From assembly GCA_963422265.1 (NCBI GenBank), contig OY729416.1, forward strand, positions 277,681-341,680: a stretch of 64,000 nucleotides of DNA, in the 5' to 3' direction. Both the position numbers and the translations under genes were made by a program. The notes beneath the pieces are model-generated. The model did no database searches. It was not told the origin of the DNA and was given only the letters and a program-made list of their open reading frames with translations. Each line of letters opens with the position of its first letter. Position 1 is the first letter of the stretch. Source of the DNA: Thermodesulfobacteriota bacterium (GTDB taxonomy: Bacteria > Desulfobacterota_D > UBA1144 > Nemesobacterales > UBA2774). This document shows positions 6,601-46,042 of the stretch, in pieces.

Positions 6601-6693
6601 AAAGCTAAAAAAGGTCGGAGAGTAGAAGAAGGGGGATCCTACTCCACGTTTCCATAAGTATGTCGGCAAATGACCCTCCAATCTAGCCAATTA

Positions 6694-26220: not shown

Positions 26221-26242
26221 CCCCCCCCCCCCCCCCCCCCCC
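26221..26242. repeat. Homopolymeric tract C22, 28 nt upstream of the TTG start of the giant adhesin gene
   Basis: 22 consecutive C read directly. A possible TTGACA-17-TAAAGT promoter at 26166-26194 would put the tract in the 5' leader. Confidence 0.9.
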
Positions 26243-26269
26243 GAAATTCCTGTCCGGCAGGACAACGCC

Positions 26270-28495: not shown

Positions 28496-31400
28496 GTGAA
28501 ACTGAATGGAGCACCAAATGCGGACGTGACCGTAACAGTCCGTAATAATTTCCCTGATGAAATCACCGTCTCCCCGGCCTCCCTGACCTTTACCACCAGC
28601 GACTGGAATACCCCGCAGAGGGTCACCGTCACCGTCTTGGATAACCAGGTCGATAATGGCGATCAACGTACCATTCTTGTCTGGCATTTGCCGACCGGTG
28701 GTGGCTACGGTTCTCAGCAGAACACTAATATAACAGTGCAATATAACGACAACGACACCGCCGGCGTCACCGTCACCGAGACCGGTGACAGCACTGCCAC
28801 CACCGAAGCCGGCGGCACCGACACCTTCACGGTCGTGCTGAACACCGAGCCGTTAGAGGGTGTCAGAATCGCCGTATCCAGTTCCGACATCAGTGAAGGT
28901 ACGGTTGACAAGAGCAGCCTGACCTTCACCGCAGCCAACTGGGATACGGTACAGACCGTCACCGTCACCGGTCAGGATGACAGCCTGGTTGACGGGGATC
29001 GAGCCTATAACATCGTACTGGCCAAGGTCGTCAGCACTGATACCAACTACCACGGCATTGACCCAGCGGACGTATCGGTGACCAACACCGATGATGACGC
29101 CGGCGTTACGTTATCCAAGAGCAGTGTCACCGTCACCGAAGCCAGTGGCAACAGTAATACCAACACCTACACTGTAGTACTGGACGCCCAACCCTCGGGC
29201 ACCGTCACCGTCACCCTCACCAGCGGCGATACCAGCGTGGCCAGAGTCTCCCCGGCCTCCCTGACCTTTACCACCAGCGACTGGAATACCGCACAGCAAG
29301 TCACCGTCACTGGGGTGGACGACAGCACCGATGAGGACCGCAGCACCACCATCACCCATACAATCAGTGGTGGGGGATACGGCTCAGTGAGCATAGCCGA
29401 CGTCGCCGTCACCCTGACCGATGACGATACCGCCCGCGTCACGCCGCCGAGCAAGCCCACCGGACTCGAGGCAGTGGGGGGCGACAGTCAGGTGACGTTG
29501 ACCTGGAATAATCCGAATAACGCCGCCATCACCGGGTATCAGATCAGGCAGCGGAGTTATGTCAACGGGGCATGGACTAAATTTCCTAAATTTTCTAACA
29601 TAATACCGGGCAGTGATGCCAGCACCACTAGCCACGTGGTGAGTGGTCTGACCAACGGCGTGAGGTATAGTTTCCAAATCCGTGAGATGGTGGGCAAAAA
29701 GGGAGGGAAACCGTCTGAGGCCAAAGCGACACCGGCGGCCCCGCCACCGCCGAAACCGAGCAAGCCCACCGGCCTCAGGACAGTAGCAGGGAACAATCAG
29801 GCGACGTTGATCTGGAATAATCCGAATAACGCCGCCATCACCAAGTATCAGTATAAGCAGTGGAATTCATCGTCTACCGAGAGCGGCGCGAAGTGGGCTG
29901 ACATACCGGGCAGTGATGCGAACACCACCAGCTACGTGGTGAGTGGTCTGACCAACACCTCTGTTATCTATAGATTCCGCATCCGTGCGGTGGCAGGCCC
30001 CTCTGTCGGGCTTCAGTCCAGCTCTGCCGGTGCGATCATTGCGGTACCGCCTGCTGCGCCTGTCGTGACGGCGACGCCGGGCGACGCTCAGGTGAGGTTA
30101 AGTTGGTCGGGGAGCATAGGCTATTATATCACCAGGTATCAGATCAAGCAGTGGACGGGCAGTAGCGAGCCGGCCAATGGCTGGAAGGACATTCCCGGGA
30201 GTCGATCGAGCACCACCAGCCACGTGGTTAGGGGTCTGACCAGCGGCGTGAGTTACAGTTTCCGCATCCGTGCGGTGGCAACATGTAGTTTTAATTCTGG
30301 GAGATTCATAGCTTCTGATTGCAGCGTTGCGGGGACGCCGTCCACTCCCGTCAGTCCGACGCTTGTGCCGGGCAAGCCTGTCGTGGCGCCAATGCCGGGC
30401 GACGCTCAGGTGACGTTGAGTTGGAGTAATCCGAATGATGTTGCCATCACCAAGTATCAGATCAAGCAGTGGACTGGCAGTAGCGAGAGTGGGAGCTGGA
30501 CTGACATATCGGGGAGTGGATCGAGCACCACCAGCCATGTGGTGAGTGGCCTGACCAGCGGCGTGAGGTATAGTTTCCGTATTCGTGCGGTGGCAGGTAC
30601 CAATGTTGCAGGGACGCCGTCCGATCCCGTCAGGGCAGTACTCCTGGACAAGCCTGTCGTCAGTGCCAGTGCGGGCGACACTCTGGTGACGTTGAGTTGG
30701 AGTGATCCGAATGACGATTCCATCACCAGGTATCAGATCAAGCAGTGGACTGGCAGTAGCGAGAGAGGGCGTTGGACTGACATATCGGGGAGTGGATCGA
30801 GCACCACCAGCCTCGTGGTGGGGCGCCTGACCAACGGCGTGAGGTATAGTTTCCGTATCCGTGCAATGGTGGGTCTTTTCCCGGGGGTGGAGTCAGCTTC
30901 CGTCAGTTCGACGCCTGTGCCGGGCAAGCCTGCCGTGACGGCGACGCCGGGCACCGCTCAGGTGACGTTAAGCTGGAGTAATCCGAATGATGCTTCCATC
31001 GCCAGGTATCAGATCAAGCAGTGGACTGGCAGTAGCGAGAGTGGGAGTTGGACTGACATATCGGGGAGTGGGGAGGACACCACCAGCCACGTGGTGAGGG
31101 GTCTGACCAACGGCGTTGAGTATAGTTTCCGTATCCGTGCGGTGACAGGTACCAACGCTTCAGGGACGCCGTCCGATCCCGTCAGTGAGACGCCAGCGGT
31201 ACAGCCGGACAAGCCTGCTGTTACAGCGGCGCCGGCGGGCGACAGTCTGGTGAGGTTGAGTTGGAGTAATCCGAATGACGCTTCCATCACCGGGTATCAG
31301 ATCAAGCGGTGGACTGGCAGTAGCGAGAGTGGGAGTTGGACTGACATATCGGGGAGTGGGAAGGACACGATCACATACACGGTACCGGGTCTGACCAACG

Positions 31401-34400
31401 GCGTTGAGTATAGTTTCCGTATCCGTGCGATGGCAGGTCGTGTTCCAGGGATGGAGTCGGATGTCGCCAGCGCGACGCCTGTGGCAGACAAGCCTATCGT
31501 TACGGCGACGCCGGGCAACGCTCTGGTGACGTTAAGCTGGAGTAATCCGAATGACGCTTCTATCACCGGGTATCAGATCAAGCAGTGGACTGGCAGTAGC
31601 GAGAGTGGGAGTTGGACTGACATATCGGGGAGTGGGGAGGACACCATCAGCCACGTGGTGAGTGGTCTGACCAACGGCGCCAGGTATGGTTTCCGTATCC
31701 GTGCGATGGTAGGCGCTGTTACAAGGACGCCGTCCGATCCCGTCAGTGCGACGCCTGTGTCGCCGCCTGTCGGACTCACGGCGACGCCGGGAGACTCTCA
31801 GGTGACGTTGACCTGGAATAATCCGAACAATCCCACCATCACCGGGTATCAGCTCAAAAAGTATCGTTTCACGATTGAGACCGGTTTTAACGAGGGTTCT
31901 TGGACTGACATACCAGGGAGTGGAAAGGACACCACCAGCTACGTGGTAACGAGTCTGACCAACGGCGCCAGGTATGGTTTCGAGATTCGTGCGGTGGTAG
32001 GCAGTGTTACAGGAGAGGAGTCCGAGTTCGTGCCCGTCACCCTGAGCAGCATCTTCACCATTACCGGGACGGTGACCCAGGGAGAGACACTGACCGCGGA
32101 TACCAGCACGATCTCCGACCCCGACGGCCCGAAGAGTCTGACGTTCACCTACCAATGGAAGCGCGGCGGGACTGCCATAGGCGGTGCCACCGGCCGCACC
32201 TACGTTCTGACGCAGGCCGACGTCGGGAAGGCTATCACCGTCATCGTGAGCTGGACCAATGCTCGTGGGACATTAAAGTCTCTCACCTCGACTGCGACTG
32301 CGAACGTGGCGAACGTGAATGAATCACCAACCGGGGCCGTTACCATCACCGGCACCGCCACCAGGGGACAGACGTTGACTGCGGATACCAGCACGATCGT
32401 CGACCCGGACGGCCCTGCCCGTCTGACGTTCACCTATCAATGGAATCGCGGCGGGACTGCCATAGGCGGTGCCACCGGCCGCACCTACGTTCTGACGCCG
32501 GCCGACGTCGGGAAGGCCATCAGCGTCACCGTGAGCTGGACCGATGCTGGCAGCACCGCGGAGTCATTCATCTCTGCTGCTACCACGAGTGTAACAAACA
32601 CCAACCAATCACCGACCGGGGCCGTCGCCATCACCGGCACCGCCACCCAGAAGCAGACACTGACCGCGGTTACCAGCACGATCGTCGACCCGGACGGCCC
32701 CAGCAGTCTAACGTTCAGCTACCAGTGGAACCGCGATGGGTCTGCCATCAGCAGTGCCACCGGCAGCACCTACGTGCTGACGCAAGCCGACGTCGGGGCC
32801 AAGATCACCGTCACCGTGAGCTGGACCGATGCTGGCAGCACCGCGGAGTCGTTCAACTCTGCTGCGACGGCGAAGGTGGCGAACGTGAATGACCTGCCGA
32901 CCGGGGCCGTCACCATCACCGGCACCGTCACCCAGAAGCAGACGTTGACCGCGGTGACCAGCACGATCTCCGACCCGGACGGCCCGAGTAATTTGGTTTT
33001 TAGCTATCAATGGAAGCGAGATGGGAATAACATCAGCAGCGCCACCGGCCGCACCTACGTTCTGACGCAGGCTGACGTCGGGAAGGCCATCATCGTCACC
33101 GTGAGCTGGACCGATGCTTATGGGGCATCAGAGTCTCTCACCTCTGCTGCGACAGCGAAGGTGGTGAACGTGAACGACCGGCCGACCGGGGCCGTCACCA
33201 TCACCGGCACCCCCATCCAGGGACAGATACTGACCGCGGACACCTCCGGCATTTCCGACCCGGACGTCCCTGACACTGACAGTCTGACCTTTACCTACCA
33301 GTGGACGCGTGGCCCGGATACTGTCAGCCGCACCAGCACTTACACCCTGACGCAGGCTGACGTCGGGGAGATCATCACCGTAGTCGTGGCTTATCAAGAT
33401 GGTGGGCGTAGGCAGCTTTTCCTTGCTAGAACTCCAAAGGTAGCGAACCTAAACGACGCACCGACCGGGGCCGTTACCATCACCGGCACCCCCACCCAGG
33501 GAGAGACACTGACCGCGGTGACCAGCACGATCTCCGACCCGGATGGCCCGAGTGATTTGGTGTTCAGCTACCAGTGGAAGCGCGATAGGATTGCCATCAG
33601 CAGCGCCACCGGCAGCACCTACACCCTGACGCAAGCCGACGTCGGGAAGGCCATCAGCGTCATTGTGAGCTGGACCGATGCTGGCAGCACCGCGGAGACC
33701 CTCACCTCTGTTGCTACCGCGAGTGTAACCAACATAAACGACTCACCGACCGGCAGCGTCACCATCACCGGCACCGTGACCCAGGGCCAGACACTGACCG
33801 CAGACACCTCCGGCATCTCCGACCCCGACGGCCCCGCCAGTCTGACCTTCAGCTACCAATGGAAACGCGATGGGTCTGACATCAGCAGTGCCACCAGTAG
33901 AACCTACATTCTGACGCAAGCCGACGTCGGGAAGGCCATCAGCGTCACCGTCAGCTGGACCGATGCCGGCAGCATCGTGGAGACCCTCACCTCTGCTGCG
34001 ACAGCGAACGTAGCGAACCTAAACGACTCGCCGACCGGTAGCGTCACCATCAGCGGCACGGTGACCCAGGGCCAGACCCTGACCGCAGTGACCAGCACGA
34101 TCGTCGACCCGGACGGCCCGGCCAGTCTGACCTTCAGCTACCAATGGAAACGCGATAGCACTGACATCAGCAGTGCCACCAGTAGAACCTACATTCTGAC
34201 GCAAGCCGACGTCGGGAAGGCCATCACCGTCATCGTGAGTTGGACCGATGCCGGCAGCATCGTGGAGACCCTTACCTCGACTGCGACAGCGAAGGTGGCG
34301 AACATGAATGACCCGCCGACCGGGGCTGTCACCATCAGCGGCACCGTGACCCAGGGCCAGACCCTGACCGCGGTGACCAGCACGATCGTCGACCCCGACG

Positions 34401-37400
34401 GCCCCAGCAGTCTAACCTTCACCTACCAATGGAACCGTGGCGGGAATCCCATCAGCAGCGCCACCGGCAGCACCTACACCCTGACACAAGCCGACGTCGG
34501 TAAGGCCATCAGCGTCATTGTGAGCTGGACCGATGCTGGCAGCACCGCGGAGACCCTCACCTCGGCGGCGACAGCGAACGTAACCAACGCGAACGATCCG
34601 CCGACCGGGGCTGTCACCATCAGCGGCACCGTGACCCAGGGCCAGACACTGACCGCAGACACCTCCGGCATCTCCGACCCCGACGGCCCCAGCAATCTGA
34701 CGTTCACCTACCAATGGAAGCGCGATGGGTCTGACATCAGCAGTGCCACCAGTAGAACCTACATTCTGACGCAAGCCGACGTCGGGAAGGCTATCACCGT
34801 CATCGTGAGTTGGACCGATGCCGGCAGCATCGTGGAGACCCTCACCTCTGCTGCGACAGCGAACGTAGCGAACCTAAACGACTCGCCGACCGGTAGCGTC
34901 ACCATCAGCGGCACGGTGACCCAGGGCCAGACCCTGACCGCAGTGACCAGCACGATCGTCGACCCGGACGGCCCGGCCAGTCTGACCTTCAGCTACCAAT
35001 GGAAACGCGATAGCACTGACATCAGCAGTGCCACCAGTAGAACCTACATTCTGACGCAAGCCGACGTCGGGAAGGCTATCACCGTCATCGTGAGTTGGAC
35101 CGATGCCGGCAGCATCGTGGAGACCCTTACCTCGACTGCGACAGCGAAGGTGGCGAACATGAATGACCCGCCGACCGGGGCTGTCACCATCAGCGGCACC
35201 GTGACCCAGGGCCAGACCCTGACCGCGGTGACCAGCACGATCGTCGACCCCGACGGCCCCAGCAGTCTAACCTTCACCTACCAATGGAACCGTGGCGGGA
35301 ATCCCATCAGCAGCGCCACCGGCAGCACCTACACCCTGACACAAGCCGACGTCGGTAAGGCCATCAGCGTCACCGTGAGTTGGACCGATGCCGGCAGCAT
35401 CGTGGAGACCCTCACCTCGGCGGCGACAGCGAACGTAACCAACGCGAACGATCCGCCGACCGGGGCGGTCACCATCACCGGCACCGTGACCCAGGGCCAG
35501 ACACTGACCGCGGATACCAGCACGATAGTTGACCCGGACGGCCCGGCCAGTCTGACCTTCAGCTACCAATGGAAACGCGATAGCACTGACATCAGCAGTG
35601 CCACCAGTAGAACCTACATTCTGACGCAAGCCGACGTCGGGAAGGCTATCACCGTCATCGTGAGTTGGACCGATGCCGGCAGCATCGTGGAGACCCTCAC
35701 CTCTGCTGCGACAGCGAACGTAGCGAACCTAAACGACTCGCCGACCGGTAGCGTCACCATCAGCGGCACGGTGACCCAGGGCCAGACCCTGACCGCAGTG
35801 ACCAGCACGATCGTCGACCCGGACGGCCCGGCCAGTCTGACCTTCAGCTACCAATGGAAACGCGATAGCACTGACATCAGCAGTGCCACCAGTAGAACCT
35901 ACATTCTGACGCAAGCCGACGTCGGGAAGGCTATCACCGTCATCGTGAGTTGGACCGATGCCGGCAGCATCGTGGAGACCCTTACCTCGACTGCGACAGC
36001 GAAGGTGGCGAACATGAATGACCCGCCGACCGGGGCTGTCACCATCAGCGGCACCGTGACCCAGGGCCAGACCCTGACCGCGGTGACCAGCACGATCGTC
36101 GACCCCGACGGCCCCAGCAGTCTAACCTTCACCTACCAATGGAACCGTGGCGGGAATCCCATCAGCAGCGCCACCGGCAGCACCTACACCCTGACACAAG
36201 CCGACGTCGGTAAGGCCATCAGCGTCACCGTGAGTTGGACCGATGCCGGCAGCATCGTGGAGACCCTCACCTCGGCGGCGACAGCGAACGTAACCAACGC
36301 GAACGATCCGCCGACCGGGGCGGTCACCATCACCGGCACCGTGACCCAGGGCCAGACACTGACCGCGGATACCAGCACGATAGTTGACCCGGACGGCCCG
36401 GCCAGTCTGACCTTCAGCTACCAATGGAAACGCGATAGCACTGACATCAGCAGTGCCACCAGTAGAACCTACATTCTGACGCAAGCCGACGTCGGGAAGG
36501 CTATCACCGTCATCGTGAGTTGGACCGATGCCGGCAGCATCGTGGAGACCCTTACCTCGACTGCGACAGCGAAGGTGGCGAACATGAATGACCCGCCGAC
36601 CGGGGCTGTCACCATCAGCGGCACCGTGACCCAGGGCCAGACCCTGACCGCAGACACCTCCGGCATCTCCGACCCCGACGGCCCCAGCAATCTGACGTTC
36701 ACCTACCAATGGAACCGTGGCGGGAATCCCATCAGCAGCGCCACCGGCAGCACCTACACCCTGACACAAGCCGACGTCGGTAAGGCCATCAGCGTCACCG
36801 TGAGTTGGACCGATGCCGGCAGCATCGTGGAGACCCTCACCTCGGCGGCGACAGCGAACGTAACCAACGCGAACGATCCGCCGACCGGGGCGGTCACCAT
36901 CACCGGCACCGTGACCCAGGGCCAGACACTGACCGCGGATACCAGCACGATAGTTGACCCGGACGGCCCGGCCAGTCTGACCTTCAGCTACCAATGGAAA
37001 CGCGATAGCACTGACATCAGCAGTGCCACCAGTAGAACCTACATTCTGACGCAAGCCGACGTCGGGGCGGCCATCAGCGTCGCCGTCAGCTGGACCGATG
37101 CCGGCAGCATCGTGGAGACCCTCACCTCTGATGCGACAGCGAACGTAGCGAACCTAAACGACTCGCCGACCGGTAGCGTCACCATCAGCGGCACGGTGAC
37201 CCAGGGCCAGACCCTGACCGCAGTGACCAGCACGATCGTCGACCCGGACGGCCCGGCCAGTCTGACCTTCAGCTACCAATGGAAACGCGATAGCACTGAC
37301 ATCAGCAGTGCCACCAGTAGAACCTACATTCTGACGCAAGCCGACGTCGGGGCGGCCATCAGCGTCGCCGTCAGCTGGACCGATGCCGGCAGCATCGTGG

Positions 37401-39310
37401 AGACCCTTACCTCGACTGCGACAGCGAAGGTGGCGAACATGAATGACCCGCCGACCGGGGCTGTCACCATCAGCGGCACCGTGACCCAGGGCCAGACCCT
37501 GACCGCGGTGACCAGCACGATCGTCGACCCCGACGGCCCCAGCAGTCTAACCTTCACCTACCAATGGAACCGTGGCGGGAATCCCATCAGCAGCGCCACC
37601 GGCAGCACCTACACCCTGACACAAGCCGACGTCGGTAAGGCCATCAGCGTCACCGTGAGTTGGACCGATGCCGGCAGCATCGTGGAGACCCTCACCTCGG
37701 CGGCGACAGCGAACGTAACCAACGCGAACGATCCGCCGACCGGGGCGGTCACCATCACCGGCACCGTGACCCAGGGCCAGACACTGACCGCAGACACCTC
37801 CGGCATCTCCGACCCCGACGGCCCCAGCAATCTGACGTTCACCTACCAATGGAAGCGCGATGGGTCTGACATCAGCAGTGCCACCAGTAGAACCTACGTT
37901 CTGACGCAGGCCGACGTCGGGAAGGCCATCAGCGTCATTGTGAGCTGGACCGATGCTGGCAGCACCGCGGAGACCCTCACCTCTGCTGCGACAGCGAACG
38001 TAACCAACGCGAACGATCCGCCGACCGGGGCTGTCACCATCACCGGCACCGTGACCCAGGGCCAGACACTGACCGCGGATACCAGCACGATAGTTGACCC
38101 CGACGGCCCCGCCAATCTGACGTTCACCTACCAATGGAAGCGCGATGGGTCTGACATCAGCAGTGCCACCAGTAGAACCTACGTTCTGACGCAGGCCGAC
38201 GTCGGGAAGGCCATCAGCGTCATTGTGAGCTGGACCGATGCTGGCAGCACCGTGGAGACCCTCACCTCTGCTGCGACAGCGAACGTAACCAACGCGAACG
38301 ATCCGCCGACCGGCAGCGTCACCATCAGCGGCACCGTGACCCAGGGCCAGACCCTGACCGCGGATACCAGCACGATAGTTGACCCCGACGGCCCCGCCAG
38401 TCTGACGTTCACCTACCAATGGAAGCGCGATGGGTCTGACATCAGCAGTGCCACCAGTAGAACCTACATTCTGACGCAAGCCGACGTCGGGAAGGCTATC
38501 ACCGTCATCGTGAGCTGGACCGATGCCGGCAGCATCGTGGAGACCCTTACCTCGGCGGCGACAGCGAAGGTGGTGAACGTGAACGACCCGCCGACCGGCA
38601 GCGTCACCATCACCGGCACCGTGACCCAGGGCCAGACACTGACCGCGGATACCAGCACGATAGTTGACCCCGACGGCCCCGCCAGTCTGACGTTCACCTA
38701 CCAATGGAAGCGCGATGGGTCTGACATCAGCAGTGCCACCAGTAGAACCTACGTTCTGACGCAGGCCGACGTCGGGAAGGCCATCAGCGTCATTGTGAGC
38801 TGGACCGATGCTGGCAGCACCGTGGAGACCCTCACCTCTGCTGCGACAGCGAACGTAACCAACGCGAACGATCCGCCGACCGGCAGCGTCACCATCAGCG
38901 GCACCGTGACCCAGGGCCAGACCCTGACCGCGGATACCAGCACGATAGTTGACCCCGACGGCCCCGCCAATCTGACGTTCACCTACCAATGGAAGCGCGA
39001 TGGGTCTGACATCAGCAGTGCCACCAGTAGAACCTACGTTCTGACGCAGGCCGACGTCGGGAAGGCCATCAGCGTCATTGTGAGCTGGACCGATGCTGGC
39101 AGCACCGTGGAGACCCTCACCTCTGCTGCGACAGCGAACGTAACCAACGCGAACGATCCGCCGACCGGCAGCGTCACCATCAGCGGCACCGTGACCCAGG
39201 GCCAGACCCTGACCGCGGATACCAGCACGATAGTTGACCCCGACGGCCCCGCCAGTCTGACGACCTACCAATGGAAGCGCGATGGGTCTGACATCAGCTG
39301 CCACCAGTAG
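28496..39310 (+). CDS. Giant repetitive surface adhesin-like protein, main 3604-aa ORF: beta-sandwich domains, 11 fibronectin type III domains, then about 25 tandem 95-aa repeats
   Basis: Continuous 10.8-kb ORF. FN3 consensus P..L.A..GD.QVTLSW..PND..ITGYQIKQW......W.DI.GS...TTS..V.GLTNGV.YSFRIRAV. 95-aa unit PTGAVTITGTVTQGQTLTADTS.I.DPDGP..LTF.YQWKR.G..ISSAT..TY.LTQADVGK.I.V.VSWTD.GS..E.L.S.AT..V.N.ND. Confidence 0.8.
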   Translation: MKLNGAPNADVTVTVRNNFPDEITVSPASLTFTTSDWNTPQRVTVTVLDNQVDNGDQRTILVWHLPTGGGYGSQQNTNITVQYNDNDTAGVTVTETGDSTATTEAGGTDTFTVVLNTEPLEGVRIAVSSSDISEGTVDKSSLTFTAANWDTVQTVTVTGQDDSLVDGDRAYNIVLAKVVSTDTNYHGIDPADVSVTNTDDDAGVTLSKSSVTVTEASGNSNTNTYTVVLDAQPSGTVTVTLTSGDTSVARVSPASLTFTTSDWNTAQQVTVTGVDDSTDEDRSTTITHTISGGGYGSVSIADVAVTLTDDDTARVTPPSKPTGLEAVGGDSQVTLTWNNPNNAAITGYQIRQRSYVNGAWTKFPKFSNIIPGSDASTTSHVVSGLTNGVRYSFQIREMVGKKGGKPSEAKATPAAPPPPKPSKPTGLRTVAGNNQATLIWNNPNNAAITKYQYKQWNSSSTESGAKWADIPGSDANTTSYVVSGLTNTSVIYRFRIRAVAGPSVGLQSSSAGAIIAVPPAAPVVTATPGDAQVRLSWSGSIGYYITRYQIKQWTGSSEPANGWKDIPGSRSSTTSHVVRGLTSGVSYSFRIRAVATCSFNSGRFIASDCSVAGTPSTPVSPTLVPGKPVVAPMPGDAQVTLSWSNPNDVAITKYQIKQWTGSSESGSWTDISGSGSSTTSHVVSGLTSGVRYSFRIRAVAGTNVAGTPSDPVRAVLLDKPVVSASAGDTLVTLSWSDPNDDSITRYQIKQWTGSSERGRWTDISGSGSSTTSLVVGRLTNGVRYSFRIRAMVGLFPGVESASVSSTPVPGKPAVTATPGTAQVTLSWSNPNDASIARYQIKQWTGSSESGSWTDISGSGEDTTSHVVRGLTNGVEYSFRIRAVTGTNASGTPSDPVSETPAVQPDKPAVTAAPAGDSLVRLSWSNPNDASITGYQIKRWTGSSESGSWTDISGSGKDTITYTVPGLTNGVEYSFRIRAMAGRVPGMESDVASATPVADKPIVTATPGNALVTLSWSNPNDASITGYQIKQWTGSSESGSWTDISGSGEDTISHVVSGLTNGARYGFRIRAMVGAVTRTPSDPVSATPVSPPVGLTATPGDSQVTLTWNNPNNPTITGYQLKKYRFTIETGFNEGSWTDIPGSGKDTTSYVVTSLTNGARYGFEIRAVVGSVTGEESEFVPVTLSSIFTITGTVTQGETLTADTSTISDPDGPKSLTFTYQWKRGGTAIGGATGRTYVLTQADVGKAITVIVSWTNARGTLKSLTSTATANVANVNESPTGAVTITGTATRGQTLTADTSTIVDPDGPARLTFTYQWNRGGTAIGGATGRTYVLTPADVGKAISVTVSWTDAGSTAESFISAATTSVTNTNQSPTGAVAITGTATQKQTLTAVTSTIVDPDGPSSLTFSYQWNRDGSAISSATGSTYVLTQADVGAKITVTVSWTDAGSTAESFNSAATAKVANVNDLPTGAVTITGTVTQKQTLTAVTSTISDPDGPSNLVFSYQWKRDGNNISSATGRTYVLTQADVGKAIIVTVSWTDAYGASESLTSAATAKVVNVNDRPTGAVTITGTPIQGQILTADTSGISDPDVPDTDSLTFTYQWTRGPDTVSRTSTYTLTQADVGEIITVVVAYQDGGRRQLFLARTPKVANLNDAPTGAVTITGTPTQGETLTAVTSTISDPDGPSDLVFSYQWKRDRIAISSATGSTYTLTQADVGKAISVIVSWTDAGSTAETLTSVATASVTNINDSPTGSVTITGTVTQGQTLTADTSGISDPDGPASLTFSYQWKRDGSDISSATSRTYILTQADVGKAISVTVSWTDAGSIVETLTSAATANVANLNDSPTGSVTISGTVTQGQTLTAVTSTIVDPDGPASLTFSYQWKRDSTDISSATSRTYILTQADVGKAITVIVSWTDAGSIVETLTSTATAKVANMNDPPTGAVTISGTVTQGQTLTAVTSTIVDPDGPSSLTFTYQWNRGGNPISSATGSTYTLTQADVGKAISVIVSWTDAGSTAETLTSAATANVTNANDPPTGAVTISGTVTQGQTLTADTSGISDPDGPSNLTFTYQWKRDGSDISSATSRTYILTQADVGKAITVIVSWTDAGSIVETLTSAATANVANLNDSPTGSVTISGTVTQGQTLTAVTSTIVDPDGPASLTFSYQWKRDSTDISSATSRTYILTQADVGKAITVIVSWTDAGSIVETLTSTATAKVANMNDPPTGAVTISGTVTQGQTLTAVTSTIVDPDGPSSLTFTYQWNRGGNPISSATGSTYTLTQADVGKAISVTVSWTDAGSIVETLTSAATANVTNANDPPTGAVTITGTVTQGQTLTADTSTIVDPDGPASLTFSYQWKRDSTDISSATSRTYILTQADVGKAITVIVSWTDAGSIVETLTSAATANVANLNDSPTGSVTISGTVTQGQTLTAVTSTIVDPDGPASLTFSYQWKRDSTDISSATSRTYILTQADVGKAITVIVSWTDAGSIVETLTSTATAKVANMNDPPTGAVTISGTVTQGQTLTAVTSTIVDPDGPSSLTFTYQWNRGGNPISSATGSTYTLTQADVGKAISVTVSWTDAGSIVETLTSAATANVTNANDPPTGAVTITGTVTQGQTLTADTSTIVDPDGPASLTFSYQWKRDSTDISSATSRTYILTQADVGKAITVIVSWTDAGSIVETLTSTATAKVANMNDPPTGAVTISGTVTQGQTLTADTSGISDPDGPSNLTFTYQWNRGGNPISSATGSTYTLTQADVGKAISVTVSWTDAGSIVETLTSAATANVTNANDPPTGAVTITGTVTQGQTLTADTSTIVDPDGPASLTFSYQWKRDSTDISSATSRTYILTQADVGAAISVAVSWTDAGSIVETLTSDATANVANLNDSPTGSVTISGTVTQGQTLTAVTSTIVDPDGPASLTFSYQWKRDSTDISSATSRTYILTQADVGAAISVAVSWTDAGSIVETLTSTATAKVANMNDPPTGAVTISGTVTQGQTLTAVTSTIVDPDGPSSLTFTYQWNRGGNPISSATGSTYTLTQADVGKAISVTVSWTDAGSIVETLTSAATANVTNANDPPTGAVTITGTVTQGQTLTADTSGISDPDGPSNLTFTYQWKRDGSDISSATSRTYVLTQADVGKAISVIVSWTDAGSTAETLTSAATANVTNANDPPTGAVTITGTVTQGQTLTADTSTIVDPDGPANLTFTYQWKRDGSDISSATSRTYVLTQADVGKAISVIVSWTDAGSTVETLTSAATANVTNANDPPTGSVTISGTVTQGQTLTADTSTIVDPDGPASLTFTYQWKRDGSDISSATSRTYILTQADVGKAITVIVSWTDAGSIVETLTSAATAKVVNVNDPPTGSVTITGTVTQGQTLTADTSTIVDPDGPASLTFTYQWKRDGSDISSATSRTYVLTQADVGKAISVIVSWTDAGSTVETLTSAATANVTNANDPPTGSVTISGTVTQGQTLTADTSTIVDPDGPANLTFTYQWKRDGSDISSATSRTYVLTQADVGKAISVIVSWTDAGSTVETLTSAATANVTNANDPPTGSVTISGTVTQGQTLTADTSTIVDPDGPASLTTYQWKRDGSDISCHQ
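29440..32040 (+). repeat. Array of 11 FN3-domain-coding repeats, about 270-290 bp each, moderately diverged
   Basis: Periodic protein motif in the 28496..39310 ORF. Confidence 0.75.
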
Positions 39311-40140
39311 AACCTACATTCTGACGCAAGCCGACGTCGGGAAGGCTATCACCGTCATCGTGAGCCGCATCGTGGAGACCCTTACCTCGGCGGCGACCGA
39401 AGGTGGTGAACGGAACGACCCGCGACCGGCAGCGTCACCATCACCGGGTGACCCAGGGCCAGACACTGACGGATACCAGCACGATAGTTGACCCCGACGG
39501 CCCCGCCAGTCTGACGTTCACCTACCAATGGAAGCGCGATGGGTCTGACATCAGCAGTGCCACCAGTAGAACCTACGTTCTGACGCAGGCCGACGTCGGG
39601 AAGGCCATCAGCGTCATTGTGAGCTGGACCGATGCTGGCAGCACCGCGGAGACCCTCACCTCTGCTGCGACAGCGAACGTAACCAACGCGAACGATCCGC
39701 CGACCGGGGCTGTCACCATCACCGGCACCGTGACCCAGCAATCTGACGTTCAGCTACCAATGGAAGCGCGATGGGTCTGACATCAGCAGTGCCACCAGTA
39801 GAACCTACGTTCTGACGCAGGCCGACGTCGGGAAGGCCATCAGCGTCATTGTGAGCTGGACCGATGACCGCGGAGACCCTCACCTCTGATGCGACAGCGA
39901 ACGTAACCAACGCGATCCGCCGACCGGGGCGGTCACCATCACCGGCACCGTGACCCAGGGCCAGACACTGACACCTCCGGCATCTCCGACCCCGACGGCC
40001 CCAGCAATCTGACGTTCAGCTACCAATGGAAGCGCGATGGGTCTGACATCAGCAGTGCCACCAGTAGAACCTACGTTCTGACGCAGGCCGACGTCGGGAA
40101 GGCCATCACCGTCACCGTCAGCTGGACCGACAGCGGCGGT
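32040..40140 (+). repeat. Tandem 285-bp (95-aa) repeat array A, about 28 units including 855-bp higher-order repeats that are near-identical at the DNA level
   Basis: Antisense ORFs recur at exact 285- and 855-bp spacing (e.g. 33904, 34759, 35614). Long stretches (33961-34250 versus 34816-35105) are identical. Confidence 0.85.
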
Positions 40141-40254
40141 ACCGCGGAGACCCTCACCTCTGCGGCTACTTCGGTCGCCGGCGTCACGTTATCCACGAGA
40201 GCGGTCACCGTCACCGAAGCCAGTGGCAGCAGTAATACCAACACCTACACCGTA
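39230..40254 (+). pseudogene. Degenerate or collapsed segment of repeat array A: several short ORFs in different frames. Relative to neighbouring copies it differs by many 1-17 nt deletions and almost no substitutions.
   Basis: E.g. cagacactgacacctccggc versus canonical cagacactgaccgcagacacctccggc; tgagccgcatcgtggagaccc versus tgagctggaccgatgccggcagcatcgtggagaccc. Confidence 0.5.
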
Positions 40255-43200
40255 GTGCTCGACACCCAACCCTCGGGCAACGTCACCGTCACGCCCACCA
40301 GCGGCGATAGCGACGTGGCGACCGTATCCCCGGTCTCCCTGACGTTTACCACGAGCAACTGGAGTACGGCACAGATCGTCACCGTCACCGGTGTGGACGA
40401 CAGCAGCGATGGTGATAGAAGTACCACCATCACCCATGCAGCCTCTGGTGGTGGCTACGACTCAGTGGTCATTGCCAGCGTCAGTGTAACGCTGACCGAT
40501 GACGACACCGCCGGTGTCACCGTGTCCGAGAGCGGTGTCACGGTAACCGAAGCCAGTGGCAGCAGTAATACCAACACCTACACCGTAGTACTCAACACCC
40601 GGCCGAGTGGCAACGTCACCGTCACGCCGACCAGCGGCGATACCAATGTGGCGACCGTATCTGGGGCCCTGACCTTTACCACCAGCAACTGGAGTACGGC
40701 ACAGTCCATCACCGTCACCGGTGTGGACGACAGCAGCGATGGTGATAGAAGCACCACCATCACCCATGCAGCCTCTGGCGGCGGCTACAACGCAGTGGTC
40801 ATCTCCGACGTAGCGGTAACGCTGACCGATGACGACACCGCCGGTGTCACCGTGTCCGAGAGCAGCGTCACGGTAACCGAAGCCAGTGGCAGCAGTAATA
40901 CCAACACCTACACCGTAAAACTTAACACCCGGCCGAGTGGCACCGTCACCGTCACGCCCACCAGCGGCGATAGCGACGTGGCGACCGTATCCCCGGTCTC
41001 CCTGACGTTTACCACGAGCAACTGGGGTACGGCACAGTCCATCACCGTCACCGGTGTGGACGACAGCAGCGATGGGGATAGAAGCACCACCATCACCCAT
41101 GCAGCCTCTGGCGGCGGCTACAACGCAGTGGTCATCTCCGACGTAGCGGTAACGCTGACCGATGACGATAACAACTCGCCGACGGGTTCGGTAACCATTA
41201 CTGGGGCGGCGACGCAGGGGCAGAGGCTTACGGCAGATACCAGCACGATCGTTGATCCAGACGGTCCGAGTAATCTGACGTTCAGCTATCAATGGAAGCG
41301 GGGCGGGACTGACATCAGCGGGGCGACCAGTAGCACCTACGTTCTAACACAGGCGGACGTCGGTTCTATGATCACAGTAGTAGTGAGTTGGACGGACAGC
41401 GGTAGTACAGTGGAATCTCTGACCTCTGCTGCTACAGCAAGTGTAGCGAACTTAAACGACTTGCCGACTGGTGCAGTAACCATTACGGGGACGGTGACGC
41501 AGGGGCAGACACTGACCGCGGATACCGGCACGATTGTTGACCCAGACGGTCCGAGTAATCTGACGTTCAGCTATCAATGGAAGCGGGGTGGGACTGATAT
41601 CAACGGGGCGACCAGTAGCACCTACGTTCTGACACAGGCGGACGTAGGTTCTGTGATCACAGTAGTAGTGAGTTGGACGGACGCTGGTGGGGCATCGGAA
41701 TCCCTCACCTCTGCTGCTACAGCAAGTGTGGCAAACACCAACAACTTGCCGACTGGTGCAGTAACCATTACTGGGACGGTGACGCAGGGGCAGACGCTTA
41801 CGGCGGATACCGGCACGATCGTTGATCCAGACGGTCCGAGTAGTCTGACGTTCAGCTATCAGTGGAAGCGAGGTGGGACTGATATCAGCGGGGCGACCAG
41901 TAGCACCTACGTTCTGACACAGGCGGACGTCGGTTCTGTGATCACAGTAGTAGTGAGTTGGACGGACAGCGGTAGTACAGTGGAGACTCTTACCTCTGCT
42001 GCTACAGCAAGTGTAGCGAACGTAAACGACTTGCCGACTGGTGCGGTAACCATCACCGGGACGGCGACCCAGGGCCAGACACTGACCGCGGATACCAGCA
42101 CGATTGTTGACCCAGACGGTCCGAGTAATCTGACGTTCAGCTATCAGTGGAAGCGAGGTGGGACTGACATCAGCGGGGCGACCAGTAGCACCTACGTTCT
42201 GACACAGGCGGACGTCGGTTCTGTGATCACAGTAGTAGTGAGTTGGACGGACAGCGGTAGTACAGTGGAGACTCTTACCTCTGCTGCTACAGCAAGTGTA
42301 GCGAACGTAAACGACTCGCCGACTGGTGCAGTCACCATCACCGGCACGGCGACCCAGGGCCAGACACTGACCGCGGATACCAGCACGATCGTTGATCCAG
42401 ACGGCCCGAGTAATCTGACGTTCAGCTATCAATGGAAGCGAGGTGGGACTGACATCAGCGGCGGCGCCAGTAGCACCTACGTTCTGACACAGGCGGACGT
42501 CGGGGCGGCAATCACCGTCACTGTGAGCTGGACTGACGCTGGTGGGGCATCGGAATCTCTTACCTCTGCTGCTACAGCAAGTGTAGCGAACGTAAACGAC
42601 TTGCCGACTGGTGCGGTAACCATTACGGGGACGGCAACCCAGGGGCAGACACTGACCGCGGATACCAGCACGATTGTTGACCCAGACGGTCCGAGTAATC
42701 TGACGTTCAGCTATCAATGGAAGCGGGGTGGGACTGACATCAGCGGGGCGACCAGTAGCACCTACATTCTGACACAGGCGGACGTCGGTTCTGTGATCAC
42801 AGTAGTAGTGAGTTGGACGGACGCTGGTGGGACATCGGAATCCCTCACCTCTGCTGCTACAGCAAGTGTAGCGAACGTAAACGACTTGCCGACTGGTGCG
42901 GTAACCATTACGGGGACGGCAACCCAGGGGCAGACGCTTACAGCGGATACCGGCACGATCGTTGATCCAGACGGTCCGAGCAGTCTGACGTTCAGCTATC
43001 AATGGAAGCGAGGCGGGACTGATATCAACGGGGCGACCAGTAGCACCTACATTATGACACAGGCGGACGTCGGTTCTGTGATCACAGTAGTAGTGAGTTG
43101 GACGGACAGCGGTAGTACAGTGGAATCTCTGACCTCTGCTGCTACAGCAAGTGTAGCGAACGTAAACGACTCGCCGACTGGTGCGGTAACCATTACGGGG

Positions 43201-45618
43201 ACGGCGACCCAGGGCCAGACACTGACCGCGGATACCGGCACGATTGTTGACCCAGACGGTCCGAGTAATCTGACGTTCAGCTATCAATGGAAGCGAGGCG
43301 GGACTGACATCAGCGGCGCCACTACTAGCACCTACGTTCTGACACAGGCGGACGTAGGTTCTGTGATCACAGTAGTAGTGAGTTGGACGGACGCTGGTGG
43401 GGCATCGGAATCTCTTACCTCGACTGCCACTGCGAAGGTGATTAACATCAGCGGTGCTGACTCTGGCACGATTATTGATGTAGTAGAGGACGGTGGTCGC
43501 AGCATCATCACGGCAACGGTTGACGAGACGGCTGTGAAGCTGACGCTGCCATCTGGACACGGCGTGACGGAGATTGAGTTTTCACCGGCGGCGCCCACTG
43601 TTACTGAGCCGTCGGGCGTGAGCTTTGGGGGTAAACCGTCTTACGTGGATATAGATCTGGACGTGGAGCTCTCGTCATCATCAAGTGCCATCGTCTGTCT
43701 GGAGGAGCCCGAAGAGCTGTCAGGTAATCTATCGGTATATCATCTTGCCGATGTAGAAGGTGCGGGGTGGAGGAAGCTGCCGTCGCCTGCATCGGTGCCC
43801 AGCGGTTATGTATGCGGTAAAACGAGTAGTTTTTCTACTTTTGTATTGGGTTCGCCAAAGCCGACTTTCGGTTCAGAATCCATTGGGGACTATGTCTGGA
43901 CGGTTGGTGTGGAAGTTGTTGATGTTGTTCTACCTGAGGCTACTGGTGGTGACGGTGTTATTACCTACAGTCTGAGACCGTCTCTACCATTGGATCTTAA
44001 GTTTAATGATGATTCTCCTCGCGCTATCACTGGCAAGCCGACTGAGGCGTTAGCTAAGACGAAGTTCACCTACAAGGCTGAGGACGTAGATGGCGATACA
44101 AGTGAGTTGTCATTTAGCATAACGGTTCGTGCAGCCGAGGAAAAGGAGCGAGCGCGTGTTCTTTCTGTAGTGTTAGCTTCTTTTGGACGGGCAGCTGCAA
44201 CCGGAGCGGTGGACGTAATAGGTGAACGTTTTGTTTCTTCTTCTTCTCTGGCAGGTAGTCCTAAATTGACATTGGGTGGTGTTTCTATGACATCGTTTGA
44301 CACTCGTTCTGTGGCAGGAGCTGTGGATGGGGTGTTGGGTCTGAGTGGTGGTTCAGATATTGAATTGTTGGAGGGTTTAGATCGAGAGCCTGTTGAGTTA
44401 CGGCGTGTTTCTGGGAGGGATTTGTTTGCGCAGAGCGAATTTTCTATTCCTTTGAGTAGTAGTGGTGATATGGGAGGAGTGATGCGAGGTTGGACGTTAT
44501 GGGGCAGTGGTGCGGGTAGTGGATTTTCTGGTAGTAATTTGGATGGAGATATAGATACAGAGGGTGAGTTGTATACGGGCTACATGGGATTGGACTATAG
44601 GTTTGGTAATAGGGGTTTGGCGGGAGTAGCGATATCTCGTAGTGTTGGAGAGGTGGACTATGAGGTGGATGGTAGCTTTCATCTTATGGGTGGAGAGACA
44701 GGTAGTATCCGAGGGGAGGTAGATTTGGAGTTGACGAGCGTTCTTCCATATGCGCACTACACTATTCGTCCTGGTCTTAGTATATGGGGTTTGTTTGGAG
44801 CGGGTATAGGCGATATTGAGTTGGAGGATGGGGCAGGAGAAGTAGAGGCGGACGTAAATATGCTGATGGTAGCGTTGGGAGTGCGTCAGGAGTTGGCTAG
44901 ATGGGGAGATATAGATTTTGGGTTAAAGAGTGATGGTTTTGCAGTGCAGTTAAAGACAGAGGGGGTGGAAGGTCTTTCTGGTGTTAGTGGAGTAGCGCGT
45001 CGTTTGCGATTAGGTTTAGAGATGAGCCGTGACGTGTATGTGACAGGAGATTCTTTGTTGCTACCAAGTGTGGAGATAGGGGGGCGATGGGACGGCGGAG
45101 ATGCGGATAGTGGAGTAGGTATGGAGGTAGGCGGAGGTATAGAGTATGTTCATAGAGGTTTGGGTTTGAGCGTGGAGGTTCGAGGGAGGTATTTGTTGTT
45201 TCATGAGGAGTCTGAGTTTGAGGATTGGGGAGGTAGTTTTTCATTGCGGATGGGTGATGGAGTTCGGGGGCGTGGATTGTGGTTGAAGTTTGAGCCTGAG
45301 TGGGGTGAGGTAGCGAGTGGAGTAGAGCGAATGTGGCGAGGTGAGGTTGATAGTGGGTTAGGAGTAGGGAAGCGGGGTTTATCTCCTGGGCGTGTGAAGT
45401 TTGACGTTGGATATGGTATGGAGACGCGAGGTAGTGGGTGGCTTGTAACGCCGTATAGTGGCGTATCTATTATGAGGGAGGGGGAGCGCGAGTATAGGTT
45501 GGGTGGCAAGGTAGGTGTAGGGGAGTGGATGGATATAAGTTTGGAGGGGGAGCGTCGAGAGGTTTCTAATGGAGTTGTGGATCACGGAATACTATTATGG
45601 TGGAAGCTGTTATTGTAG
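40255..45618 (+). CDS. C-terminal 1787-aa ORF of the giant adhesin: 3 beta-sandwich domains, 8 more 95-aa repeats (array B), a cadherin-like domain and a C-terminal autotransporter-like beta-barrel
   Basis: Frame is open from 39891; the first start codon is a GTG at 40255, inside a domain. The tail GWTLWGSGAGSGFSGSNLDGDIDTEGELYTGYMGLDYRFGNRGLAGVAISRS has a type Va beta-domain-like pattern. YSLRPSLPLDLKFNDDSPRAITGKPTE..FTYKAEDVDGDTS resembles He_PIG/dystroglycan-type cadherin domains. Confidence 0.75.
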   Translation: MLDTQPSGNVTVTPTSGDSDVATVSPVSLTFTTSNWSTAQIVTVTGVDDSSDGDRSTTITHAASGGGYDSVVIASVSVTLTDDDTAGVTVSESGVTVTEASGSSNTNTYTVVLNTRPSGNVTVTPTSGDTNVATVSGALTFTTSNWSTAQSITVTGVDDSSDGDRSTTITHAASGGGYNAVVISDVAVTLTDDDTAGVTVSESSVTVTEASGSSNTNTYTVKLNTRPSGTVTVTPTSGDSDVATVSPVSLTFTTSNWGTAQSITVTGVDDSSDGDRSTTITHAASGGGYNAVVISDVAVTLTDDDNNSPTGSVTITGAATQGQRLTADTSTIVDPDGPSNLTFSYQWKRGGTDISGATSSTYVLTQADVGSMITVVVSWTDSGSTVESLTSAATASVANLNDLPTGAVTITGTVTQGQTLTADTGTIVDPDGPSNLTFSYQWKRGGTDINGATSSTYVLTQADVGSVITVVVSWTDAGGASESLTSAATASVANTNNLPTGAVTITGTVTQGQTLTADTGTIVDPDGPSSLTFSYQWKRGGTDISGATSSTYVLTQADVGSVITVVVSWTDSGSTVETLTSAATASVANVNDLPTGAVTITGTATQGQTLTADTSTIVDPDGPSNLTFSYQWKRGGTDISGATSSTYVLTQADVGSVITVVVSWTDSGSTVETLTSAATASVANVNDSPTGAVTITGTATQGQTLTADTSTIVDPDGPSNLTFSYQWKRGGTDISGGASSTYVLTQADVGAAITVTVSWTDAGGASESLTSAATASVANVNDLPTGAVTITGTATQGQTLTADTSTIVDPDGPSNLTFSYQWKRGGTDISGATSSTYILTQADVGSVITVVVSWTDAGGTSESLTSAATASVANVNDLPTGAVTITGTATQGQTLTADTGTIVDPDGPSSLTFSYQWKRGGTDINGATSSTYIMTQADVGSVITVVVSWTDSGSTVESLTSAATASVANVNDSPTGAVTITGTATQGQTLTADTGTIVDPDGPSNLTFSYQWKRGGTDISGATTSTYVLTQADVGSVITVVVSWTDAGGASESLTSTATAKVINISGADSGTIIDVVEDGGRSIITATVDETAVKLTLPSGHGVTEIEFSPAAPTVTEPSGVSFGGKPSYVDIDLDVELSSSSSAIVCLEEPEELSGNLSVYHLADVEGAGWRKLPSPASVPSGYVCGKTSSFSTFVLGSPKPTFGSESIGDYVWTVGVEVVDVVLPEATGGDGVITYSLRPSLPLDLKFNDDSPRAITGKPTEALAKTKFTYKAEDVDGDTSELSFSITVRAAEEKERARVLSVVLASFGRAAATGAVDVIGERFVSSSSLAGSPKLTLGGVSMTSFDTRSVAGAVDGVLGLSGGSDIELLEGLDREPVELRRVSGRDLFAQSEFSIPLSSSGDMGGVMRGWTLWGSGAGSGFSGSNLDGDIDTEGELYTGYMGLDYRFGNRGLAGVAISRSVGEVDYEVDGSFHLMGGETGSIRGEVDLELTSVLPYAHYTIRPGLSIWGLFGAGIGDIELEDGAGEVEADVNMLMVALGVRQELARWGDIDFGLKSDGFAVQLKTEGVEGLSGVSGVARRLRLGLEMSRDVYVTGDSLLLPSVEIGGRWDGGDADSGVGMEVGGGIEYVHRGLGLSVEVRGRYLLFHEESEFEDWGGSFSLRMGDGVRGRGLWLKFEPEWGEVASGVERMWRGEVDSGLGVGKRGLSPGRVKFDVGYGMETRGSGWLVTPYSGVSIMREGEREYRLGGKVGVGEWMDISLEGERREVSNGVVDHGILLWWKLLL
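41160..43440 (+). repeat. Tandem 285-bp repeat array B (8 units). Same protein repeat as array A but with a different synonymous codon set.
   Basis: E.g. ccgaccggggccgtcaccatcaccggcacc (A) versus ccgactggtgcggtaaccattacggggacg (B); both encode PTGAVTITGT. Confidence 0.8.
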
Positions 45619-45633
45619 AAAGAATAAAGATTA

Positions 45634-45668
45634 AATCCCCCCCCCTTCCCTTTACAAAAGGGGGGATT
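45634..45668 (+). terminator. GC hairpin aatccccccccc...ggggggatt just after the giant gene stop. The loop is long and no U-tract follows.
   Basis: C9 at 45637-45645 and G6 at 45660-45665. Confidence 0.3.
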
Positions 45669-45744
45669 GTATAGGGAATGAACTCTCGTCCCCCGATGCT
45701 CTATCTGGATTCCTAGTCGAGCTGGTAATGATGGGCAAGTTGGT

Positions 45745-45925
45745 AATGACGGGTTGTTAAAAGCTGTTAGAACTAGCTATTCTCTTTCATTTTCCATCTT
45801 TTTTCTGTTACTTTCTCGGCACTTTTCTTTAACTTTTCTATTCATTTTCTATCCTTTTTATCTCTTTTCTTTAACGTGGTAAGCACGTCTCTATGAGGCA
45901 TGTCCTCATAATAATTTAAGCTCTC
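45745..45925. repeat. About 170-bp dispersed repeat element, copy B, inverted relative to copy A at 4925-5100
   Basis: The reverse complement aligns with 4925-5100, including the ccacgttaaagaaaag and atgaaagagaatagctagtt ends. Confidence 0.65.
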
Positions 45926-46042
45926 TTGGGTGGCAAATATGACGTCGCTAATTGAGGCCTAATTAAGGCGGCAGACGCTTTCCTTTCAACTCCCACTAGG
46001 TTAAACTTGCTTATCAATAGGATATAAAAATTGAGGAGGTAA

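Follow-up and report, generated by a model that had tools for sequence, protein, structure and literature searches.

Among described secretion systems, the one compared most directly with the locus considered here is the beta-domain of type Va autotransporters (PF03797; NalP 1uyn, EspP 2qom, Hbp 3aeh, BrkA 3qq2, and AIDA-I 4mee). These beta-domains are barrels of 12 strands and about 250-300 residues whose beta-signal ends in an aromatic residue. A predicted translocator of related design closes a giant autotransporter-like adhesin gene of a Thermodesulfobacteriota bacterium (assembly GCA_963422265.1, contig OY729416.1, forward-strand positions 277,681 to 341,680). This 64,000-nucleotide stretch is called the window, and its first letter is position 1. 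Across the translocator module, the sense strand is strongly depleted of cytosine; a literature search returned no described autotransporter gene with a cytosine-depleted coding strand. The asymmetry is old, inherited, and clade-specific, and it is kept in a functional multi-copy module. It is neither an artefact nor ongoing damage.

Strand asymmetry of base composition is the second point of comparison. Replication and transcription are associated with an excess of G+T on the leading strand, and Francino and Ochman reportedly found an excess of C>T changes on the non-transcribed strand. The locus shares the direction of this bias: G exceeds C and T exceeds A on the coding, probably leading, strand, as they do mildly in host genes of the + strand. 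Unlike that asymmetry, the bias in the module is several-fold larger (fourfold-site skew +0.75 versus about +0.1), is not dominated by C>T, and is confined to one module of 1.5-2 kb, sparing the spacer, the neighbouring genes, and the passenger. GC-skewed, R-loop-prone regions are also said to occur at eukaryotic gene ends, as attributed to Ginno et al. in 2013. The module resembles these in that its non-template strand has a positive GC skew on the kilobase scale and lies at the 3' end of a transcription unit. The likeness is one of resemblance only: the locus is bacterial and codes for protein under purifying selection.

Base counts over positions 44150-45618 give A 20.4%, C 10.3%, G 39.3%, and T 29.9%, with a GC skew of +0.584. 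In the core (44300-45618), C is 9.5%, G is 40.5%, and the skew is +0.62. These counts agree with the first-pass annotation of this DNA, which had put C near 9% and G near 40%, and C lies well under 18%. The same annotation judged a skew of about +0.6 to be beyond intragenic norms, and it is: windows of 300 bases from 44300 to 45650 range from +0.53 to +0.71, whereas 1469-base windows outside the segment have a mean absolute skew of 0.12 (standard deviation, sd, 0.08) and a maximum of 0.34. Cytosine is depleted at all three codon positions of the segment (0.12, 0.14, and 0.06), and fourfold degenerate sites of the module hold A.29, C.036, G.25, and T.415. Avoidance of sense-strand C is confirmed as real and reaches down to the amino-acid make-up of the protein. 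The dinucleotide AA is depleted as well (observed/expected 0.44).

The depletion is limited to the translocator module and a short upstream block, at silent and replacement sites alike. It grows progressively from about position 43600. Fourfold C falls from.19 to.10-.15 in the pre-barrel block, where depletion is intermediate and T is.25-.52, and then to.02-.06; depletion is full by about 44200. It halts at the stop codon, and the spacer 3' of the gene has 21% C. The gene and its 3' surroundings comprise the following features.

26270..45618, + strand: giant, fragmented, mosaic autotransporter-like adhesin gene, delimited by its open reading frames (ORFs), Pfam matches, frame hops, and composition
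26270-26932, 27061-28251, 28496-39310, 39403-39780, and 40255-45618, + strand: ORFs of the giant gene (at least five)
43546..44151, + strand: non-repeated pre-barrel block, including a He_PIG-like Ig domain (Pfam He_PIG, 22 bits)
44152..45618, + strand: translocator module, the C-purged segment, from composition and homology to PF03797-bearing proteins
44155..44235, + strand: predicted alpha-helix (module residues 2-28) at the position of the autotransporter linker helix, from AlphaFold2
44437..45609, + strand: predicted outer-membrane beta-barrel (residues 96-486, about 16-18 strands), from AlphaFold2 and Foldseek
45616..45618, + strand: stop codon and end of the C depletion
45637..45666, no strand assigned: C9/G8 stem-loop directly 3' of the gene, with a terminator-like score on the - strand only

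The segment forms the 3' end of ORF 40255-45618, and the module is its last 488 residues. Upstream, between 26.2 and 44.1 kb, Pfam places Calx-beta-like, FN3, and AIR9-type Ig repeat arrays in the passenger. These arrays have a GC content of 0.57-0.64 and a third-position C (C3) of 0.33-0.48 within a genome of 44% GC. The opposing biases of arrays and 3' end that the first-pass annotation described are therefore real, with a C3 of 0.06 in the segment, and the silent-site bias of the passenger is just as unlike the host as that of the barrel. FN3 repeats at 30000-32000 have a positive skew. The long antisense ORFs named in the first-pass annotation are only 68-102 amino acids long.

The segment is predicted to encode a C-terminal translocator made of a linker helix and a large beta-barrel, the latter as the first-pass annotation had supposed. 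A word-indexed search returned 107 homologues, about 60 of which carry a precomputed PF03797 assignment, and an exhaustive search returned 6861. The module itself matches the Pfam Autotransporter profile only partially (profile positions 1-103) at 24.5 bits, with a cut-off of 26, and a profile search of PDB sequences with the module gave no match. The AlphaFold2 model has a predicted local distance difference test score (pLDDT) of 77, reaching 94 over the first 20 residues, and a predicted template-modelling score of.72. In Foldseek, the model matches the beta-domains of BrkA, Hbp, EspP, NalP, and AIDA-I (E 2e-5 to 8e-4) and partly superposes on solved beta-domains, with target-normalised template-modelling (TM) scores of.47-.59; it equally matches 22-strand TonB-dependent receptors and LptD at low TM.

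As in type Va systems, the barrel follows a helix at the C-terminus, ends a very long repeat-rich passenger, and has homologues with PF03797. Unlike type Va systems, the barrel is predicted by the model to have about 16-18 strands over about 390 residues, and the protein ends in Leu (…HGILLWWKLLL, 45589-45618) rather than an aromatic residue. Relatives at 51-55% identity also end in Leu (RWKFLL, SWKLQL, SWTVGL), and GC-rich homologues end in W or F. Given the predicted strand number, the barrel family may be a distinct translocator variant. Residues that are invariant across the family are retained in the window copy.

Codon usage in the host explains part of the asymmetry. Host genes of the + strand have a skew of about +0.18, with third-position C about.17, G.26, and T.33, and - strand genes are their mirror image, from which the + strand here is probably the leading strand. 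Compared with host usage, as the first-pass annotation had suggested, the module deviates clearly. Arg is encoded by CGN at 78% in the barrel and by AGR at 73% in the host, Leu by TTG at 56% versus 15%, and fourfold C is 3.6% versus a typical value of about 19% and a range of.11-.29 that takes in every host gene. When the barrel protein is recoded with host + strand codon usage, the skew is 0.41 ± 0.02 and C is 15.3%, so the observed 0.58 lies 8.4 sd above expectation. A codon model that includes next-base context expects 224 C where 152 are observed. With or without that context, amino-acid composition and host codon usage do not reproduce the skew as its full cause. The Gly-rich protein and host bias account for roughly half of the excess skew, and the remainder is module-specific depletion of C.

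Other general causes were rejected. Host-wide coupling of silent-site C to the skew at codon positions 1 and 2 is ruled out, as fourfold C is independent of that skew among host genes (r = -0.13). A neutral genome-wide C-poor equilibrium is ruled out by non-coding host DNA, which has 18.7% C. Replication-associated GC skew would be expected to extend over neighbouring genes and spacers of the replichore, and the bias here is not carried into the 21% C spacer, into non-coding DNA, or into host + strand genes. The depletion is specific to sense-strand C and goes beyond host usage. The skew is built in three layers: a G-rich barrel family, the G+T bias of the host + strand, and a clade-specific removal of sense-strand C.

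The barrel belongs to a widespread family. DNA was compared at 79 loci from GTDB genomes (L005-L083) and 6 further loci, and proteins were compared across 254 relatives. The 79 loci come from Binatia, Nitrospirales, Gammaproteobacteria, Halieaceae, Latescibacterota, Spirochaetia, Poriferihabitaceae, and others. The family is present in at least eight phyla of metagenome-assembled genomes (MAGs), often with ten or more copies per genome, in DNA of 52-72% GC. The locus resembles the multi-copy Calx-beta/FN3/cadherin autotransporters of these uncultured MAGs in its translocator (30-48% identical), its kinds of passenger domain (37-62% identical), and its modular shuffling. Unlike them, the window clade has C of 9-10% and a skew of +0.58, against C of 23-33% and skews of +0.08 to +0.29 at the 79 loci, with the 6 further loci alike, and it has half the Ala, Thr, Pro, Gln, and His.

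Relative to the family, the window has lost C rather than gained G. The homologue average over aligned codons is G.406, C.286, T.152, and A.156; the window equals it in G, is 0.18 lower in C, and is 0.14 higher in T and 0.05 higher in A. A family trend with host GC is ruled out as the cause, as G, not C, drops in the regression. At 44.5% GC the regression predicts C.275 and G.338, and the C of the window falls 8.7 residual sd below it. The protein follows: Ala, Pro, Thr, His, and Gln together make up 9.8% of the last 400 window residues compared with 23.8 ± 3.1% in 107 homologues, and among the 254 relatives only the window's own clade falls below 16.5%. The amino-acid composition of the window is a 3.7-4.5 sd outlier in the family. 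The family barrel is generally rich in Gly, Val, Glu, Asp, Arg, and Trp, and its fourfold sites prefer G over C by +0.16, compared with -0.05 in flanking genes, at 66 of 71 loci. The window clade is the extreme end of a family-wide tendency. Fourfold sites are saturated against the GC-rich homologues, and the path of change is unreadable from them.

Three close relatives share the C-poor make-up. An exhaustive protein search recovered P0228, P0229, and P0230 at 97%, 94%, and 89% amino-acid identity to the barrel; the word-indexed search missed them. All three have the C-poor amino-acid make-up and the …WWKLLL end of the window barrel with different passengers. P0228 and P0230, which were compared as proteins, lie with P0377 on one 1.78 Mb contig that also carries a member of the cluster of at least 90% identity to the Mrp protein encoded in the window. 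The window probably derives from this genome or from one very near to it. The DNA of P0229 (L170, ENA sample ERZ21742408) holds two barrel copies, A and B, in tandem genes (at 1-1320 and 6200-7667), with skews of +0.54 to +0.70 and C of 8-11%. The C-poor barrel is multi-copy, with several paralogues per genome. Among the window copy, L170 A, and L170 B, pairwise nucleotide identity is 95-96%, dS is 0.11-0.14, dN is 0.02-0.03, and dN/dS is 0.16-0.22; the translocator module is under purifying selection.

More distant relatives connect the window to the rest of the family. At 51-55% identity, P0231, P0233, and P0235 have 23-31% Ala, Pro, Thr, His, and Gln. The DNA of P0231 (L169, on a 2.9 Mb contig with a local GC of about.53) is intermediate: it encodes a barrel whose skew is +0.35 and rises to +0.46, with C at.19 and G at.405, behind a C-rich passenger with skews of -0.05 to -0.31 and C3 of.38-.68. 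Cytosine forms a graded series, from.29 in the family to.19 in L169 and.10 in the window, while G remains constant at.40-.41.

The module and the passenger have different histories. L170 and L169 come from the same metagenome and are 87-98% identical in nucleotides over their first 600 codons (L170 2271-4070 versus L169 6170-7970), with 94-98% given for the N-terminal passenger and with barrels that are 62-69% identical. This pattern indicates that passenger DNA was recently exchanged between lineages. By contrast, L170 5598-7667 aligns to window 43546-45618 at 93.7%, and this block is inherited as a unit. The passenger would be free of the composition of the barrel because its parts swap while 43546-45618 stays one unit.

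Substitution counts describe how C was lost. Against the family, replacement classes that lose C exceed their reverse 2.6x (C>T type), 1.9x (C>G type), and 3.0x (C>A type), and the window is the most extreme of 33 sequences in all three; G>A-type replacements are balanced (0.93x). Judged by three closer outgroups, the barrel has replaced Ala at 36 of 50 ancestral positions and Thr at 14 of 23, Gly, Trp, and Tyr are retained, and the commonest one-step class is C>G (Ala>Gly). Conservation against L169 DNA is 37% for C, 58% for A, 70% for G, and 76% for T. Forward and reverse counts against L169 are 64/20 for C>T, 65/17 for C>G, 45/8 for C>A, and 68/72 for G>A, with G>T at 87/21, mostly in third positions. 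Only at silent sites does C>T account for half of the lost C.

Recent change tells a different part of the history. Using L169 as the outgroup for differences between the window and L170 is biased toward ancestral C, and the comparison of three copies was used instead. The 48 recent changes that this comparison polarises include 4 losses and 8 gains of C. These counts fit stationarity or a slow relaxation toward about 17-18% C, and there is no present hypermutation of C.

Together, these patterns show a long-term process in which substitutions stripped sense-strand C at the three codon positions. Silent C became T, A, or G, and Ala, Thr, Pro, Gln, and His gave way to Gly, Ser, Val, and Glu, while purifying selection preserved the fold and the G-bearing codons of Gly, Arg, Trp, Asp, Glu, and Val. 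The present composition is stationary or slowly relaxing.

What drove this process is less certain. The first-ranked candidate, put forward tentatively, is a local, strand-asymmetric process that removed C from the G-rich non-template strand. The strand might, for instance, have undergone prolonged single-stranded exposure in transcription R-loops or by serving as the lagging-strand template. The starting condition would have been a non-template strand already rich in G, as the silent-site preference of the family suggests, and C loss might have reinforced itself as the strand gained G. The driver would have acted on the barrel module because the module persists in the lineage and has been exposed for as long as it has been resident. 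The passenger would never equilibrate because it is repeatedly replaced and amplified by recombination.

Several observations weigh against local C loss as the driver. CGN Arg codons have been kept although CGR>AGR is silent, removes C, and leads to codons preferred by the host; none of the candidate drivers accounts for this retention. The net change against L169 (C>T 44, C>G 48, C>A 37) has no single mutational signature, and no TC, CC, CpA, or CpG context signature appears in the segment, where CpG is not depleted (observed/expected TC 1.05, CC.85, GC 1.00, AC 1.02, CG 1.09). C is not hypermutable in the recent changes, which cover the last 4-5% of divergence; per-site losses are.033 for C and.034 for both G and T, and the recent gains of C outnumber the losses. 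No canonical G-quadruplex motif was found in the segment, which has 41 runs of G3 or longer alongside its skew of +0.6. Such a local mutational ratchet is not known from bacteria.

Selection at the nucleic-acid level might instead hold the sense strand or messenger RNA (mRNA) of the translocator C-poor. This is the second-ranked explanation and a rather unlikely one. Possible benefits would be to curb the self-folding of a message that its Gly-rich protein forces to 40% G, or to give Rho a poor substrate in the 3' end and an excellent one in its antisense. Selection would explain a composition that is stable under purifying selection without raised C mutability, the silent-site preference for G over C throughout the family, and the loss of C in every mutational direction, as if C itself were disfavoured. 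A G-ending codon dialect is also kept in the barrels of two hosts, with TTG for Leu and GAG for Glu at 84-88%, and one of these hosts prefers GAA at 75%.

The predicted folding of the message, which the first-pass annotation had proposed as a target of selection, gives a mixed answer. The natural barrel message has a predicted folding energy of -0.210 kcal/mol/nt, a degree of structure equal to or less than that of host genes (-0.23 to -0.25) and weaker than that of the barrel recoded with host codons (-0.263, z 5.9). Weaker folding follows automatically from C loss, however, and the composition-controlled comparison with the barrel's own codons shuffled is marginal (-0.221, z 1.9). In the same mRNA, the C3-rich passenger is the most structured part (about -0.31), which argues against gene-wide pressure to limit structure. 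The unswapped CGN Arg codons also count against selection for a C-poor message, since AGR is C-free and host-preferred, and no barrel-specific functional reason for it is known. A search for internal promoter-like sites on the + strand found none, and no Rfam family matched.

A historical origin ranks third and is doubtful. Here, the composition would come from an unsampled donor, another replicon, or an earlier, extremely strand-biased state of the lineage, and would now be ameliorating. The gene is a mosaic of swapped parts, its codon usage is unlike that of the host in Arg CGN, Leu TTG, and Glu GAG, and the 8 gains and 4 losses of C match the 2:1 ratio expected for relaxation toward about 18% C, although 8 to 4 does not differ significantly from 1:1. 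The first-pass annotation had raised a different source for the segment and suggested a search with the 3' end alone. The mosaic structure and the codon usage unlike that of the host stand, but only the barrel's own orthologues and paralogues share the composition, and no distinct donor lineage was found among about 85 homologous DNA loci (79 + 6), 254 proteins, a JGI metagenome scan, which held no close relatives of the barrel, and IMG/VR, which held none and leaves phage carriage unsupported. In addition, the 55% relative in another host is intermediate in the same direction, which better fits a persistent gene-specific force.

Two further explanations are very improbable. Under the first, a barrel rich in Gly, Val, and Glu, host codon usage, and leading-strand G+T bias would suffice. 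These factors cover most of the way from the +0.18 of host + strand genes to +0.41, and positive skew occurs in all family barrels. They do not reach the observed skew or the fourfold C of the module, and they leave the outlying amino-acid composition and the regression estimate of C.275 unaccounted for.

Under the second, comparably improbable explanation, the module would be subject to ongoing or recent enzymatic C-to-T hypermutation, whether by a deaminase toxin, by transcription-coupled deamination, or by a process resembling repeat-induced point mutation on a multi-copy module. The C deficit is strand-coordinated, T is enriched (30%;.42 at fourfold sites), and the module is indeed multi-copy. 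The deamination suggested in the first-pass annotation is right about strand specificity, with G>A balanced where C losses are 1.9-3.0x, but C>T is not dominant, has no sequence context, and is not recent. C>G and C>A match C>T in frequency, the 48 recent changes include one C>T versus four T>C, and the ORF is intact, with a dN/dS of about 0.2 and with Gln and CGA codons not made into stops. An old episode of C-to-T hypermutation is possible; one in the recent past is contradicted.

A sequencing or assembly artefact, to which several frame breaks in the passenger repeats might point, is excluded for practical purposes because the two L170 copies from an independent ENA assembly share the composition, as do three proteins from another contig, and because family-invariant residues and low dN/dS are maintained.

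The reading frame of the upstream part of the gene is not continuous. A signal-peptide-like start (…RRLAATLGLIFFIICVLPGTAQA) lies near 26225-26300, followed by 17 kb of passenger, and the frame is broken several times in between, with hops at 26.2-28.5 kb and 39.15-40.25 kb and an in-frame stop at 39778-39780. Either the gene is decaying, or the repeats, which are hard to polish, contain indel errors. P0228, P0229, and P0230 likewise begin without a signal peptide.

The host genome is small and Dadabacteria-like. Housekeeping genes surround the locus, including hisS, rimP-nusA-infB, truB, pnp, miaA, ccmH, a FabG-like gene, mrp, and hemA/hemC. Among named relatives, the Mrp protein is closest to those of Thermodesulfobacteriota and Candidatus Dadabacteria MAGs, with 72-76% identity. 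Used as bait, it recovered related contigs (L167, L168) without an autotransporter at that place. More than 50 metagenome contigs carry relatives of the FabG-like short-chain dehydrogenase (46043-46810) at 73-88% amino-acid identity, and none of these contigs shares a neighbouring gene with the window; as bait in JGI metagenomes, the dehydrogenase recovered 80 loci, none of them syntenic and none with the barrel. An N6/N4 DNA methylase-like gene lies 3 kb downstream (48523-49722), with no link to the composition seen and no depletion of CpG. The spacer at 45637-45936, which is 95-97% identical in L170, holds two elements on the - strand: a promoter-like site (45936 to 45908) and the C9/G8 hairpin, which is terminator-like (45666 to 45637). 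A small transcript from the spacer directed at the barrel is possible.

The meaning of the locus depends on its cause. If the cause is historical, the locus is a compositional curiosity of one uncultured lineage. A bolder reading, for which the odds are poor, is that a force tied to the module, either an R-loop or single-strand ratchet of C loss or selection for a C-poor message, drove the sense strand to a near C-free state and holds it there. A quarter of the amino acids of the protein would then have been rewritten with the fold kept, and local compositional evolution of this type would be new for prokaryotes. If such a module-local force is real, nucleotide pressure would have remodelled a membrane protein beyond what genome GC predicts, halving Ala, Thr, Pro, Gln, and His and raising Gly, and local GC skew in bacteria would be more than a replication signal. 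The locus would serve as a natural experiment, one able to tell mutation bias from selection in population data, in which an exchanged C-rich passenger and a resident C-poor barrel are set side by side within one gene.

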